The translations under genes and the position numbers were made by a program. A stretch of DNA of 9,424 nucleotides, taken from IMG/VR virus record IMGVR_UViG_2671180846_000014. One strand, 5' to 3'. Positions 671-9,038 of the stretch are shown one piece after another. The notes beneath the pieces were generated by a model. That model was given only the letters and a program-made list of their open reading frames with translations. It did no database searches and had not been told where the DNA came from. Position 1 is the first letter of the stretch; every line of letters starts with the position of its first letter. The DNA comes from a virus (lineage: Duplodnaviria > Heunggongvirae > Uroviricota > Caudoviricetes).

Positions 671-700
671 ACCAGAAAAAACAAAACCCGCCGAAGCGGG
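671..700 (-). terminator. Rho-independent terminator (minus strand)
   Basis: Minus-strand RNA reads CCCGC-UUCG-GCGGG (GC stem, UUCG tetraloop) followed by UUUUGUUUUUUCUGG. On the plus strand the stem is preceded by an A-run, not followed by a U-run, so it is unidirectional. Confidence 0.7.
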
Positions 701-995
701 TTAAGTGCGGGTGCGTTGAGGATGCCTGACACATCAGCGGTGGCGAGGGATTTCTCCCCCGCCNNNNNNNNNNNNNNNNNNNNNNNNNNNNNNNNNNNNN
801 NNNNNNNNNNNNNTGGGCCTCAGATTAATGTTAAGCGTCTTGCAGGACGCGTAATGTTAACTGGGGCTTTTCTCTGTCTGCCTTACGGTGGCATGCCCGA
901 GGCAGACAGCCTCAAGCACCCGCAGCAATTCTACTTAACTCTCGCTTTACAGCAAACCGTTTTGCCCGATATGGGAATTCCCATACGGAATGAAT

Positions 996-1209: not shown

Positions 1210-1773
1210 TCATTGGTTCTCCCCCTGTGTCGCTTCTACTGCGATCTGACTGGCGTATTCGTTAATGGTAACGATAAGTTCTTGCTCGGCCTCATCCAGA
1301 CAACTACCGATACCTCGCCTGTCCACTTCAGAAGCATCGAAATCTGCACGAAGCCTGGCGACCTTCAGGATTGCGGACAACACCTCATCAGGGATTGCCG
1401 GAGAGTTGGTTGACGTTTCCGAGATTATCCGAAAATTATTGGTTGACGAACCCTTATTTTCCCGAAAGTTTCCAGCCTGAAGCATGGCGGCGCGGTGACA
1501 CCAGATAATCCAGCCAAGCGCCATATCCCATGCCATGTATTCTCTATCGCCATTTTTTGCTCTGCGGCGATCTACAGATTCCCCGAAACGCTTCTCCATA
1601 AATAATTCATAGGCTGCCCGTTCATCCGATACTGATGCCAGTGATGCCAGTGCAATTTTTAATGCGGTAAGCATGTTGTTTTGATCTTCATCGAGTCCGA
1701 ACGGTATTTCATCCCGTGATGACTCAATTCCGGTAATCGTGTACTGTAGCCATTCTTTGGTTAATTCAGTCAT
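1210..1773 (-). CDS. hypothetical protein (187 aa)
   Basis: Track ORF with ATG start at 1771-1773 and TGA at 1210-1212. Separated from the upstream gene by a 126-nt intergenic region. No recognisable family. No canonical SD; a hairpin sits 9 nt upstream of the ATG. Confidence 0.55.
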   Translation of the reverse strand: MTELTKEWLQYTITGIESSRDEIPFGLDEDQNNMLTALKIALASLASVSDERAAYELFMEKRFGESVDRRRAKNGDREYMAWDMALGWIIWCHRAAMLQAGNFRENKGSSTNNFRIISETSTNSPAIPDEVLSAILKVARLRADFDASEVDRRGIGSCLDEAEQELIVTINEYASQIAVEATQGENQ

Positions 1774-1781
1774 TTTTCACT

Positions 1782-1799
1782 ACCGCCCTTTCGGGCGGT
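1782..1799 (-). other. GC-rich hairpin (7-bp stem, GAAA tetraloop on minus-strand RNA) just upstream of the 187-aa ORF start
   Basis: Plus strand aCCGCCC-TTTC-GGGCGGt; no U-tract follows on either strand, so it is not a classic terminator. It occupies the position where an SD would be. Confidence 0.4.
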
Positions 1800-1899
1800 C
1801 TCCTGATGTTCTGAGGGTGCAGGAATCCCTCCGGTTAAGGATTTAATAAAAATCATTTCTGATTTAAATTTTCAGTGTTTAGTTGTTGGTTTATAGCCT

Positions 1900-2211
1900 T
1901 TATGCTTCGGCCTTATTTCTCAGCCATACACAAACAGGACCATCTTCGGTGTCATGTATCGAACCGATAAACCATCCCTCACCTTCTGGTCGCTCAGGTT
2001 CCCATGCTGAAATATCAGGGCCATCTGCGTCCAGATTAAAATCATCTTCATCCATACTACGGATAGCCCACTGAAGATTATTTTTCTCCATCCAGGCGTT
2101 AAACTCTTCCGTTGAAATATATTCCCGACCATCACAGAATTTTTCATATTCAGGATGCGTCCAGCAGCCATATTCATTACGTTCCACTGGCATTTCTTTA
2201 ATTGCGCTCAT
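1900..2211 (-). CDS. hypothetical phage protein (103 aa), acidic with conserved Trp residues; possibly DUF551-like
   Basis: Track ORF. ATG at 2209-2211 overlaps the upstream stop by 4 nt (ATGA) and is preceded by AAGGGGGG. Family assignment is from memory only. Confidence 0.6.
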   Translation of the reverse strand: MSAIKEMPVERNEYGCWTHPEYEKFCDGREYISTEEFNAWMEKNNLQWAIRSMDEDDFNLDADGPDISAWEPERPEGEGWFIGSIHDTEDGPVCVWLRNKAEA

Positions 2212-2396
2212 TTACCCCCCTTATTTAATTTTCTACGACACTTTTTACAATCATCTGGACTTTCGAATGTATCCGGCTCACGCTCATTGCCAAAATACAT
2301 CCACCCACCGCAAGTACTTGTTATTTCACCTTCAGCAAAATAATGATGCTTTTTCGCCATAAGTGGCCTTGCCCAGCCCGGATTCGTTTTACTCAC
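2208..2396 (-). CDS. small Cys/His-containing protein (62 aa), possible zinc-binding
   Basis: GTG start at 2394-2396 preceded by GGAGG at 6 nt; overlaps the upstream stop (GTGA). Contains HH, C-GG-W and C-KK-C motifs. Confidence 0.55.
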   Translation of the reverse strand: MSKTNPGWARPLMAKKHHYFAEGEITSTCGGWMYFGNEREPDTFESPDDCKKCRRKLNKGGK

Positions 2397-2749
2397 TTGT
2401 TGCCTCCTTTGCGAAGCTCTGCGACTAACTCGTCACATATGTGCGTCAAAGAGCAAAGTTTGATTGCTGGATGTTCGCGCACCATCTCCACACCCTGCGC
2501 CCGCAATTCTGCCAGAAAAGCGTAGGGGTCAGTTTTTTCACTGTGGTACATGGCATCATAGATAATCATTGCAGCGACACCTGCCTGTCCTGCATCTGTG
2601 ACGGATATATGCTCAAGGGCTACGGCCATTGCGTGTTTCAACCTCTCATTTTCCACCTCAAGCACCACACGATTAGCCTCCAGCTCTTCTATGCGTTTTT
2701 TTGCTGCTCCCAGCTCAACACGCAGCTCCTGATAGTTAATCTCGCTCAT
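2393..2749 (-). CDS. hypothetical protein (118 aa), predicted N-terminal coiled coil
   Basis: ATG at 2747-2749 preceded by GGAGGAAGGAG; 4-nt overlaps with both neighbours. N-terminus ELRVELGAAKKRIEELEANRVVLEVENERLK is heptad-like. Confidence 0.65.
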   Translation of the reverse strand: MSEINYQELRVELGAAKKRIEELEANRVVLEVENERLKHAMAVALEHISVTDAGQAGVAAMIIYDAMYHSEKTDPYAFLAELRAQGVEMVREHPAIKLCSLTHICDELVAELRKGGNK

Positions 2750-2970
2750 TCTCCTTCCTCCCGCACTGCTGTTTTATATGCCCGAAGCACATGCGATGTT
2801 TTTCCTGACACAGTGCTTCTCAGAAAGAAAATTCCACTGGTGTTTATTACCAGATACGGGTCAGCAAGACGCAGCATATCCAGTATGTGATTATGTTTTC
2901 TTGTTTCCAGCACCGTACTGGAAATAAGCATATGTGACACGGGGCCGAAATCATGATATCTGATTTTCAT
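2746..2970 (-). CDS. hypothetical protein (74 aa)
   Basis: ATG at 2968-2970 with a GGTGA-type SD; stop overlaps the start of the next gene. Confidence 0.5.
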   Translation of the reverse strand: MKIRYHDFGPVSHMLISSTVLETRKHNHILDMLRLADPYLVINTSGIFFLRSTVSGKTSHVLRAYKTAVREEGE

Positions 2971-2991
2971 ATCATCACCCTGCTGTAAAAA

Positions 2992-3681
2992 TTACCCGTT
3001 ATCTCCTGTCGTTATTTTCTGTATGACATCACGATGCTTATTAATTTCCCGCAGCGCGGCGCATAAGCGCTCCCACTTCTGAACCTGACCTTTTGCCCGG
3101 CGCAGCTCGCGGTTAGCCACATGCAGCGATGGTAAAATCAGACCATCCGGATGCTTTCTGATGAACGACGACTGTGACTGCACTGTGACCGCCACACTTT
3201 CAGTTTTAATTTCTTCCTGTGTTTCCGCTTCCCGGACTGGTAACGCAACACCTGCCGGCTGAGGAAAGGCTTTACCATCGGTTTCCGTTACCGATGCAGC
3301 TTTCGGCTCTGCCGGTAAATTATCGCCCGGTATGCAGTAACGATATTGACCGTCCTGATTTACGCGAATCAGACGACCTTTGCTGACAGCCATCGCCAGT
3401 GATGAATTCGCCCGGCGGGAGGTAATCCCGAACATTAACGCCAGTTCGTCAGCCGACTGAGGACCATGCTGTTCAATCGCGTTAATCAGCATCTCTGCAG
3501 TGGTTTTTGGGGCCGCTTCAGTTGCCTCACTCGTCAGCCACCACATCGACCCCTTGTTATCAGCTTCGCCACGACGCTTCAGCTTCCAGAGTTCGGTAAC
3601 AGCATCGTCACGGCTGATTTCAAGACGGGCTGCAATCTCGTGCGACGAGGCTTTTTTCAGTGCTTTCAGTGCGTCAAAAAC
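2992..3681 (-). CDS. hypothetical protein (229 aa) with two winged-helix-like segments; possibly DUF1627-like
   Basis: Track ORF 2992..3756 trimmed to the ATG at 3679-3681 ([11 protein letters not shown]...), which has GGAGG 8 nt upstream; the longer form would overlap the P-like gene. Two HTH-like stretches ([26 protein letters not shown] and [29 protein letters not shown]). Confidence 0.65.
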
Positions 3682-3724
3682 GGTTTCCATTAAATTTTCC
3701 TCCCGGTAAAAATTACTTCTCAAC

Positions 3725-4285: not shown

Positions 4286-5081
4286 NNNNNNNNNNNNNNN
4301 NNNNNNNNNNNNNNNNNNNNNNNNNNNNNNNNNNNGTGAAAACCTTCCCCTCCGCCATCCAGTAATCCCGGAATGCGGCAAGCTCAGCAGGTGTAAACTC
4401 AGGCTCAGGCAGAGCCATACCCCACACTGCTGCCCGCTGTCGAAAATCCGGCGACGGTTGCCAGACTCCAGTCATCGGAAATTTCCCGATCGGTTCGCTC
4501 AGGCCGTCCAGGTATTCAGGTTCGGCTGTCTGCAACGACGCGTCATTCAACTCACCGGTCGTAGCACTCTCGCGCATGCGCGCGTTATGTGTGGGGTTTA
4601 ATTCTTTATCTGTATCTGTATCTGTCGTGATTTGTCGTGACATATGCGTGACGCGTCGTGACTCATCGTGACAATCAGTGTTCTGCTTCCGCAGTCTTTC
4701 CCGCTCCCGCTGCGCTCTCTTGCGCTCTGCCGGGGATTTTGCGGTTTGCGAAACATTACCGTTATCCTCCTTCATCACCTGGCGTTTTTCCCATCCGGAA
4801 ATAAGATCACCATCCAGAACTCGCCCCTGCATTGCATGCAAAATTGAATCAATCACGTCTTCCGTCACATCAAGCGCACTTGCTAAATCTTCCGTCGTGA
4901 CATCAATGTGACCACGTAGTGACACGCCGTGACATGTCGTGACATTTCGTGACGCACTCACCAGAAGGTGGATATACACCGCCATCACTGTTGCGATTGG
5001 CTGTCCTGAGACCCTGGCAATGGTTCGCCATTTGGGATCATTTGGCATGTCATGCCACAATCTGAGCCAGGCATTAGCCAT
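4286..5081 (-). CDS. replication initiator candidate (O-like by position and embedded iterons); 3' end hidden by masked run
   Basis: ATG at 5079-5081 (MANAWLRLWHDMPNDPKWRTIA...) with GAGGTGA upstream; the track's extra MS comes from a GTG. Frame is open to the N run. Immediately precedes the P-like gene. Contains two phased GTGAC repeat arrays. Family (DUF1376/YdaU-like?) is not certain from memory. Confidence 0.55.
4607..4672. repeat. iteron-like array 1: (TATCTG)x3 followed by five CGTGA(C) repeats at 10-11 bp phasing
   Basis: CGTGA starts at 4626, 4636, 4647, 4657, 4667; TATCTG at 4607, 4613, 4619. Lies in frame inside the O-like CDS (encodes ...RRVTHMSRQITTDTDTD...). Confidence 0.6.
4896..4953. 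repeat. iteron-like array 2: six GTGAC repeats at 10-11 bp phasing
   Basis: GTGAC starts at 4897, 4908, 4919, 4929, 4939, 4949, same orientation as array 1. One inverted GTCAC at 4864-4868. Inside the O-like CDS N-terminal region. Confidence 0.6.
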
Positions 5082-7356: not shown

Positions 7357-7415
7357 ATTCTGGTGACATTTGGCGGTATCAGTTTTACTCCGTGACTGCT
7401 CTGCCGCCCTTTTTT
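7357..7415 (+). ncRNA. dicF: DicF small RNA homolog (ftsZ-targeting prophage sRNA) with its intrinsic terminator
   Basis: ATTCTGGTGACATTTGGCGGTATCAGTTTTACTCCGTGACTGCTCTGCCGCCCTTTTTT matches my recollection of E. coli DicF with 2 differences in the 5' part. Ends in a GC stem (GGCGG...CCGCC) plus T6. Lies upstream of the dicB-like gene as in the Qin dicB operon. Confidence 0.7.
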
Positions 7416-7419
7416 AAAA

Positions 7420-7569
7420 GTGAATTTTGTGATGCGGTGAATGCGGCTCAGCGCACGCGGAACAGTTAAAACCAAAAACAGTGTTATGGGTGGATTCTCT
7501 GTATCCGGCGTTAATTGTTAACTGGTTAACGTCACCTGGAGGCACCAGGCACCGCATCACAAAATTCAT
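7420..7569 (+). other. long-range inverted repeat (19/20 nt arms at 7420-7439 and 7550-7569) bracketing the dicF-dicB spacer; candidate RNase III processing stem
   Basis: GTGAATTTTGTGATGCGGTG (7420-7439) is the reverse complement of CACCGCATCACAAAATTCAT (7550-7569) except for one terminal base. Smaller hairpins lie between (CGTTAA...TTAACG, CCTGG...CCAGG). Confidence 0.5.
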
Positions 7570-7585
7570 TGTTGAGGACGCGATA

Positions 7586-7774
7586 ATGGAAAAGTTATCA
7601 TGTAATGCCAGCACGTCTGAACTTCGTTTCGAAATTGGCGTTATCACTGGAGACAAAACATTTATTGAAGACGCCATTAAGCAGAGAAAACTCGAGCAGG
7701 ACCTGTTAAATGAAGTATGCATTCCTTCAATGCTGGCTCGTCTGGACCTGCTGCAAAAAGGATATAAACAATGA
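7586..7774 (+). CDS. dicB: DicB-like cell-division inhibitor (62 aa), copy 1
   Basis: ATG at 7586 (track ORF 7481..7774 trimmed). MEKLSCNASTSELRFEIGVITGDKTFIEDAIKQRKLEQDLLNEVCIPSMLARLDLLQKGYKQ resembles K-12 DicB as recalled (...NVNTSEGCFEIGV...FTEDAI...RK...LL...SMLARL...). Stop overlaps the ydfD-like start (ATGA). Confidence 0.8.
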   Translation: MEKLSCNASTSELRFEIGVITGDKTFIEDAIKQRKLEQDLLNEVCIPSMLARLDLLQKGYKQ

Positions 7775-7962
7775 ATACAACATTTGCACTCGTTCTGACA
7801 GTTTATCTTGTTTCCGGCGAATCTCTTGAGCTGGTGACTGGCTTATACGGTTCAATGAAAGAATGCATGGCTGCAGCAGCAGAACAAAAAATTCCCGGTA
7901 ACTGTTATCCGGTAGATAAAACTACTCACACTAATAATAACGAAATACCGGCAGGACTTTAA
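7771..7962 (+). CDS. ydfD: YdfD-like small membrane/lysis protein (63 aa), copy 1
   Basis: ATG at 7771; hydrophobic N-terminus FALVLTVYLVSG; C-terminal EQKIPGNCYPVDK...NNEIPAGL resembles Qin YdfD as recalled. Translationally coupled to the dicB-like gene. Confidence 0.75.
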   Translation: MNTTFALVLTVYLVSGESLELVTGLYGSMKECMAAAAEQKIPGNCYPVDKTTHTNNNEIPAGL

Positions 7963-8055
7963 AACAGCACCGTAATTAATATCCGGTTTCATTTTTATAT
8001 GCCAGCAATGGCAGGGATTTGTTCACCCTTAAATCTGTAATGAGGTTAAAACAAA

Positions 8056-8092
8056 ATGAGTAAAGTCTTTATTTGCGCCGCCATTCCGGACG
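8056..8092 (+). pseudogene. ydfE-like 5' fragment (12 codons, MSKVFICAAIPD) ending at masked run
   Basis: Identical to the first 37 nt of the ydfE-like gene at 9132. The track fuses it in frame through the N run to the type-2 dicB paralog, which is probably an artefact of the masked junction. Confidence 0.4.
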
Positions 8093-8142
8093 NNNNNNNN
8101 NNNNNNNNNNNNNNNNNNNNNNNNNNNNNNNNNNNNNNNNNN

Positions 8143-8313
8143 AACGTTAATACGTCTGAAGGTTGTTTTGATATTGGTGTTCTGCTCAGTAACCGGGAGT
8201 TTACGGAAGATGCCATTAAGATGAGAAAATATGAACCTTATCTTCTCAATGATAATTCCATACTTTCCAGAATTGCCCTTCTTGAACTTGGTATTATCGG
8301 AGAACAGCAGTGA
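8143..8313 (+). CDS. DicB paralog (diverged, type 2); 5' end hidden in masked run
   Basis: Visible part NVNTSEGCFDIGVLLSNREFTEDAIKMRKYEPYLLNDNSILSRIALLELGIIGEQQ, stop TGA at 8311-8313. Shares the NVNTSEGCF-IGV and FTEDAI-RK motifs with DicB but differs from copy 1 across much of its length. Confidence 0.6.
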   Translation, partial: NVNTSEGCFDIGVLLSNREFTEDAIKMRKYEPYLLNDNSILSRIALLELGIIGEQQ

Positions 8314-8498
8314 CTTCAGCATTTGCACTGGTGATGACCGTTTTTCTTATAACGGGTGAGCCACAAAATGTGATTACCGGAATTTATGACAGTAAGTCAT
8401 CCTGCATTCAGGTAAGGGACGAACAAAAAATCCCCGGTGAATGCCTCCCGTTAAAAAAAGTATCGCTGAACCTGAATAACGAAATACCGGCTGGATAA
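8310..8498 (+). CDS. YdfD paralog (diverged, type 2; 62 aa)
   Basis: GTG start at 8310 overlapping the upstream stop (GTGA). MTSAFALVMTVFLITGEPQNVITGIYDSKSSCIQVRDEQKIPGECLPLKKVSLNLNNEIPAG is diverged from copy 1 but shares the hydrophobic N-terminus and the EQKIPG...NNEIPAG C-terminus. Confidence 0.6.
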   Translation: MTSAFALVMTVFLITGEPQNVITGIYDSKSSCIQVRDEQKIPGECLPLKKVSLNLNNEIPAG

Positions 8499-8661
8499 CC
8501 CGCCAGCCATATTAACGCCATACCAACGGATTAAAAATGCCAGCAATGGCAGGGATTCGTTCACCCTGAAATCTGTAATNNNNNNNNNNNNNNNNNNNNN
8601 NNNNNNNNNNNNNNNNNNNNNNNNNNNNNGCATCACAAAATTCATTGTTGAGGACGCGATA

Positions 8662-8850
8662 ATGGAAAAGTTATCATGTAATGCCAGCACGTCTGAACTT
8701 CGTTTCGAAATTGGCGTTATCACTGGAGACAAAACATTTATTGAAGACGCCATTAAGCAGAGAAAACTCGAGCAGGACCTGTTAAATGAAGTATGCATTC
8801 CTTCAATGCTGGCTCGTCTGGACCTGCTGCAAAAAGGATATAAACAATGA
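8662..8850 (+). CDS. dicB: DicB-like cell-division inhibitor (62 aa), second type-1 copy
   Basis: Identical translation to 7586..7774; lies within direct-repeat copy C. Confidence 0.8.
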   Translation: MEKLSCNASTSELRFEIGVITGDKTFIEDAIKQRKLEQDLLNEVCIPSMLARLDLLQKGYKQ

Positions 8851-9038
8851 ATACAACATTTGCACTCGTTCTGACAGTTTATCTTGTTTCCGGCGAATCT
8901 CTTGAGCTGGTGACTGGCTTATACGGTTCAATGAAAGAATGCATGGCTGCAGCAGCAGAACAAAAAATTCCCGGTAACTGTTATCCGGTAGATAAAACTA
9001 CTCACACTAATAATAACGAAATACCGGCAGGACTTTAA
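8847..9038 (+). CDS. ydfD: YdfD-like small membrane/lysis protein (63 aa), second type-1 copy
   Basis: Identical translation to 7771..7962. Confidence 0.75.
   Translation: MNTTFALVLTVYLVSGESLELVTGLYGSMKECMAAAAEQKIPGNCYPVDKTTHTNNNEIPAGL

Follow-up and report, generated by a model that had tools for sequence, protein, structure and literature searches.

A conserved DUF1627/YdaW gene and five accessory open reading frames in the P-to-Q region of an Escherichia coli O26:H11 lambdoid prophage

We analyzed a group of six open reading frames (ORFs), denoted g1 to g6, in the IMG/VR virus record IMGVR_UViG_2671180846_000014 (Caudoviricetes), of which the whole stretch of 9,424 nucleotides (nt) is referred to here as the window. 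The six ORFs are located on the minus strand, 3′ of a P-type replication gene, and all have the same orientation. They encode, in order, a DUF1627/YdaW-family protein of 232 amino acids (aa) (g1, 3690..2992), a basic 74-aa protein with an isoelectric point (pI) of 9.6 that matches phrog_1001 (g2, 2970..2746), a 118-aa derivative of an Ead/Ea22-family gene (g3, 2749..2393), a basic 62-aa protein with a GTG start that matches phrog_2358 (g4, 2396..2208), a stand-alone acidic protein of 103 aa (g5, 2211..1900), and an acidic mosaic protein of 187 aa (g6, 1773..1210). Counted on the sequence, 34 nt separate the stop codon of P from the start of g1, 21 nt separate g1 from g2, and a spacer of 126 nt lies between g5 and g6. 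The start and stop codons of g2/g3 (ATGA), g3/g4 (GTGA), and g4/g5 (ATGA) overlap by 4 nt each. Every one of the six ORFs matched a PHROG profile, with E-values from 9e-24 to 3e-110, and for this reason we regard them as real genes rather than chance ORFs.

The gene order, the tight coupling, the 21-nt gap, and the 126-nt spacer agree with an initial annotation of this DNA. Its descriptions of the proteins also agree with our results: g1 has two winged helices, g5 a pI of 4.2 and six tryptophans, and g4 three cysteines and two histidines. The start of g1, which that annotation had placed at 3681 to give a protein of 229 aa, was moved to the ATG at 3690, which has GGGAGG 8 nt on its 5′ side and gives a protein whose length of 232 aa matches RefSeq.

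The 2.7 kb stretch holding the six genes was found to be 100% identical to the chromosome of E. coli O26:H11 strain 11368 and to many other chromosomes. At least 80% of the stretch is present in 343 complete E. coli genomes, and parts of it were detected in 2646 of 5426. In strain 11368 it lies within a lambdoid prophage adjoining potC, where the genes run int, xis, exo, dicB, cI-like, cro, YdaT-like, O-like, P, and g1 to g6, followed by a 34-aa ORF, hokD, DUF968, RusA, DUF1133, and the lysis genes. RefSeq labels g1 as a DUF1627 protein and g2 to g6 as hypothetical. The stretch is the start of the nin-equivalent (P-to-Q) region of this lambdoid prophage, and the initial annotation was correct in assigning it a nin-region position. 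Like the nin region of lambda, it is flanked by P and the other replication genes on one side and by RusA and the Q-position genes on the other, but NinB to NinI are unmatched by any of g1 to g6, and the nin-family Pfam models had no match among the six proteins. All six proteins belong to catalogued phage families, those of g2 to g6 being widespread in enterobacterial prophages, and their sequences were already known.

We compared the gene order across related loci. Among the 53 loci with enough sequence downstream of g1, the 4.2 kb after g1 contained 37 gene orders and 69 ORF families, and the exact order g2 to g6 was observed in about nine. The commonest alternative arrangement consists of a helix-turn-helix protein, a relative of g2 with 38% identity that precedes g5, g5, a small ORF, and a DUF551 protein. 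In other prophages the slot is occupied by DUF977, DUF4406, Mom-like, and full-length Ead/Ea22 genes. Relatives of g5 and g6 are found in the early-left region of phage mEp460, adjoining the integrase gene, and a relative of g5 follows ydaW in Rac-SA53. At 28 of 52 loci the g4 homologue stood alone, with the 1.5 kb to its left and right free of g1 to g3, g5, and g6. With 37 gene orders in 53 loci, g2 to g6 assort independently rather than as a unit. This supports the earlier description of the slot as a hotspot for accessory genes, whereas the term cassette, used in the same description, overstates the unity of g2 to g6, which occur apart and in many other combinations. Neighborhood conservation, which the initial annotation had proposed as a check, thus divides the region in two: g1 is fixed after a helicase-loader gene in 68 of 69 loci, and g2 to g6 are variable.

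These results bear on whether the six genes form one co-functional operon, serving as an anti-phage defense, superinfection exclusion, or toxin-antitoxin module. The three 4-nt overlaps and the shared orientation would fit such an operon, and defense systems can occur in prophage accessory slots (PMC9122126). However, the genes are found separately, and g3 is a deletion remnant (see below). A search of PADLOC-DB 2.0 returned one marginal match, between the winged-helix region of g1 and SWIM_XIII (15.7 bits, E 0.001), and nothing for g2 to g6. Scans of the six proteins with Pfam and NCBIfam found no toxin-antitoxin or enzymatic domains, and no NCBIfam family was matched by any of the six. A single co-functional module is therefore very improbable.

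In contrast to the genes that follow it, g1 has a constant position. In the IMG/VR loci it was located directly 3′ of a helicase-loader gene in the 68 cases mentioned above, of which 42 have a P-type and 26 a DnaC-type loader, and the gap between loader and g1 is 21–34 nt in the commonest arrangements. As g1 follows both P-type and DnaC-type loaders, it is linked to the replication module. In Rac, ydaW likewise comes next after the loader gene; the upstream loader there is the DnaC-type YdaV, and the prophage carrying g1 has a P-type loader.

To characterize g1, we searched it against profile and structure databases. It matched Pfam DUF1627 (PF07789) over its full length with 261.4 bits (E 3e-78), well above the gathering cut-off of 28.1, and phrog_630 with an E-value of 3e-110, and it is 69% identical to full-length Rac YdaW. 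These matches identify g1 as a true member of the DUF1627/YdaW family. All 31 of the diverse relatives that we aligned (20–69% identity) also matched DUF1627. The family is narrow and accounts for 148 clusters (50% identity) in a set of 1.84 billion representatives. The AlphaFold2 (AF2) model of g1 contains a first winged helix (residues 1–43), a second winged helix (64–119), a disordered linker (124–189), and a C-terminal helix (189–227), with a mean predicted local distance difference test score (pLDDT) of 60 and values of 70–80 in the domains. The C-terminal helix is conserved (IP.F ... EIRRTK ... LE.LR) and the linker is variable, so that the AF2 model and the alignment of the 31 relatives together place the family architecture in g1. 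The top Foldseek match in the PDB was ScpB, a tandem winged-helix protein (E 3.5e-4); regulators of the MarR type were also matched. A profile search of PDB sequences returned the winged helices of Z-alpha, AspA, and MarR. The winged-helix matches are generic and would fit binding to DNA and binding to protein alike. We infer that g1 probably dimerizes via its C-terminal helix and probably binds DNA or a partner protein through both winged helices at the replication stage.

In lambda, the slot held by g1 is occupied by ren, whose product confers resistance to exclusion by Rex. As a winged helix, Ren can be aligned weakly with the second winged helix of g1, and the pairwise comparison of g1 with lambda Ren was not significant (BLASTP E 1.2). 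A homology between g1 and Ren, marginal by profile, was rejected, and Ren is retained as a positional analogy only.

It is unlikely, on balance, that g1 is an accessory replication component, working at the origin together with O and the helicase loader or targeting DnaB or DnaA, rather than a general transcription factor or accessory gene. Such a role is suggested by its location directly 3′ of two unrelated loader types and by its tandem winged helices, which resemble those of replication and chromosome-organizing proteins such as ScpB, the top structural match. In addition, YfdR, a neighboring prophage accessory protein, targets DnaA (PMC4776307). On the other hand, lambda replicates without a DUF1627 protein and has ren as the sole gene in the slot, the family is narrow, and the winged-helix matches are generic.

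Taking the gene order and the position of g1 together, we consider it likely that the P-to-Q region carries one conserved gene, g1, and five interchangeable accessory ORFs rather than a six-gene functional unit. Three observations weigh against this reading. First, the exact six-gene order occurs at about 99–100% identity in hundreds of genomes. This conserved order could reflect selection for the set, but it is accounted for just as well if a single prophage lineage spread recently. Second, the model of g1 is moderately confident and its matches are generic, and the top match, ScpB, binds protein. Third, g1 resembles Ren only weakly (E 3e-4 for phrog_142; E 1e-3 and probability 20% in hhalign).

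The five accessory ORFs were then characterized individually. The product of g2 matched phrog_1001 over its full length (E 9e-24) and had no match in Pfam, NCBIfam, or PADLOC. The product of g3 matched phrog_492 (E 7e-24) and phrog_368 (E 4e-19), in both cases covering only the C-terminal part of the profile. Its match to Pfam Ead_Ea22 (PF13935) covered positions 75–138 of 139 with 18.1 bits (E 0.004), which is below the gathering score of 27 bits. A protein of 242 aa (L032:8993-9721), which itself scores 104 bits on Ead_Ea22, shares 56% identity with it. The g3 protein still opens with MSEINYQELR, as the family does, and retains the coiled coil and a C-terminal module, but is without the N-terminal domain of about 100 residues. 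Given the segments retained and missing, g3 derives from an Ead/Ea22 gene by deletion and is not a full member of the family. Ea22 occurs as mosaic variants with exchangeable C-terminal domains and has a pro-lysogenic effect (PMC10834534, PMC7093339). The start motif and the coiled coil kept by g3 are those of the family that includes Ea22 of lambda and Shiga toxin (Stx) phages and Ead of P22. However, the Ea22 gene lies between exo and xis, whereas g3 lies in the nin-equivalent region, and the pro-lysogenic effect is one described for Ea22.

We also observed boundary motifs that are common to unrelated ORFs of the slot (loci L018, L025, L032, L038, L043, and L059, and window positions 2393–2749). 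These ORFs start with MSEI(N/D)YQ(A/E)LRE and end with (A)GIRIKGE or KGGN(K/Q). The motifs look like conserved linkers at which genes or parts of genes are swapped.

The product of g4 matched phrog_2358 (E 4e-31). The GTG start at 2396 has AGGAGG 6 nt on its 5′ side, in agreement with the initial annotation, which had noted a GGAGG there. RefSeq, annotated with the Prokaryotic Genome Annotation Pipeline (PGAP), gives g4 a length of 50 aa from an ATG at 2360 that is without a Shine-Dalgarno site. The homologues at 52 loci start at the same codon position, mostly with ATG, and their N-terminus is conserved. The GTG start is favored over the RefSeq ATG because both the start and the N-terminus of the homologues are conserved, and the RefSeq model of the gene probably lacks the first 12 codons. 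Residues H17, H18, C29, C50, and C53 are invariant in the homologues at these loci down to 63% identity. The protein is probably a small zinc-binding protein, a putative zinc knuckle. The g5 protein contains the invariant motif GWF.GSIHDTEDG.VC.WLR. It is a widespread phage protein, predicted to be well folded, and has no match among solved structures. Fusion proteins of g4 and g5 were sought as a sign of functional linkage, and none were found.

The product of g6 is a mosaic in which phrog_14306, phrog_660, phrog_60, phrog_3323, and phrog_5117 each cover a different segment. Two N-terminal modules (about residues 1–47 and 48–98) and a linker are followed by a C-terminal module (about 128–181). 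Residues 1 to about 130 are 72–97% identical to prophage proteins, most of which carry DUF551. Among the 4319 clusters related to g6, PF04448 (DUF551) is carried by most of the matches listed, and g6 itself had no Pfam match to this domain at E ≤ 0.1. With the DUF551-annotated prophage proteins, including the V2 variant of Ea22 (PMC10834534), g6 shares the N-terminal module, the middle module, and the linker, but it ends in a different module of about 55 residues. Mosaicism extends into single genes: g3 and g6 each represent a chimera or a deletion derivative.

The spacer between g5 and g6 contains no convincing promoter or terminator. Inspection of the sequence and its RNA fold identified an AGGAG followed directly by a GC-rich 18-nt hairpin, ACCGCCC-GAAA-GGGCGGT, at 1782..1804 on the minus strand. 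The hairpin lies 8 nt before the ATG of g6, which is without an adjacent Shine-Dalgarno site. The AGGAG and hairpin are conserved 5′ of g6-type genes in other contexts, where the variants only weaken the stem and no compensatory changes in the hairpin were seen. This element may be a hairpin-bridged ribosome-binding site.

The initial annotation had placed none of the proteins in a characterized family. The present searches place all six in PHROG, with g1 in DUF1627 (261 bits), g3 as an Ead/Ea22 derivative, and g6 with a DUF551-type N-terminus. The homology to ordinary ead/ea-type genes of lambdoid phages is confident, and the PADLOC search gave no defense or counter-defense signal. That annotation had named such homology, coupled with known housekeeping roles, as refuting its reading; these genes are not known to have a housekeeping role, and the refutation is half borne out.

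Sequence searches against PDB sequences gave nothing significant for g1, g3, g5, and g6, and all BFVD matches at E ≤ 0.001 were uncharacterized or unnamed phage proteins. It is possible, if on the whole unlikely, that one or several of the six act as inhibitors of immunity encoded by the host or a prophage, with g1/YdaW directed against a retron-type toxin, or g5 or g6 serving as a mimic of protein or DNA. The slot is hypervariable, like phage accessory regions reported to be rich in anti-defense genes (bioRxiv 10.1101/2023.04.06.535777), g5 and g6 are strongly acidic, and Ren of lambda sits in the slot of g1. The accessible text of one preprint lists overexpression of K-12 ydaW among the prophage genes that blocked the retron-Sen2 toxin RcaT in a screen, and contains no follow-up of this match (bioRxiv 10.1101/2020.06.22.160242). 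With the identity of g1 to full-length Rac YdaW given above, this screen provides a lead, not a result. In addition, ydaW of K-12 may represent a truncated allele, which weighs against this reading. PDB sequence searches, Foldseek, and BFVD gave no sequence or fold match to known anti-defense proteins, and g1 is conserved and fixed in position, unlike typical anti-defense genes, which are swapped rapidly. That at least one of the six is a new counter-defense factor seems doubtful; the leading candidates would be g1/YdaW, acting in a Ren-like manner against an abortive-infection or retron-type system, and g5.

Several features lie outside the six genes. A conserved, very hydrophobic ORF of 34 aa (MSDDISLVMEGALAVIAVVGVYCLVVFLMERLGN) with a strong Shine-Dalgarno site is located at 996–1100 on the minus strand, between g6 and hok/sok, and may encode a small membrane peptide. 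A hokD/sok type I toxin-antitoxin locus was identified at 685–921 on the minus strand (Rfam sok, 59.7 bits). It is followed by a strong hairpin resembling an intrinsic terminator at 702..685, which is probably the terminator that the initial annotation named as the boundary of the gene group. The DicF small RNA (sRNA) was detected at 7358–7409 (77 bits), and no Rfam family was detected within 1210–3690. An sRNA paper on Pas that names DUF1627 was considered and set aside; the domain serves there only as a neighborhood marker within 10 kb, and those sRNAs lie near lysis genes, not here.

An exact direct repeat of 300 nt occupies 7554–7853 and 8630–8929, 1076 nt apart. Through it a 62-aa ORF is present twice, together with the beginning of the 63-aa ORF that follows; dicB and a DUF1482 gene are annotated in this region of the reference genome. 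Repeats of 43 nt also occur at every 538 nt in the region 7554–8929. No repeats were found inside the region g1 to g6. Masked runs of N at about 764–814, about 4290–4340, and elsewhere create artificial ORFs in the window, and due to these runs the window has 135 nt fewer than NC_013361 in the O and P genes and 174 nt fewer in the hok region. One such run is crossed by the ORF described as a P-like protein of 218 aa; in RefSeq, P has 153 aa.

Returning to the reading of one conserved gene followed by five interchangeable accessory ORFs, we propose that all six would be delayed-early genes, transcribed from pR through O and P. The translation of g2 to g5 would be coupled, because of the 4-nt overlaps. 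For g5 and g6, the most likely mode of action is that each works alone and binds proteins of the host or the phage. By analogy with the roles reported for Ea22 and other proteins encoded between exo and xis, candidate roles for g5 and g6 would include tuning of the lysis-lysogeny decision, of replication, or of host defenses.

The result is negative, and its value is to spare a search for a new system in what is a routine set of prophage accessory genes. The analysis also links DUF1627/YdaW to the replication module regardless of the type of helicase loader. About one in two complete E. coli genomes contains the families described here, and expression screens of their members could be worthwhile.

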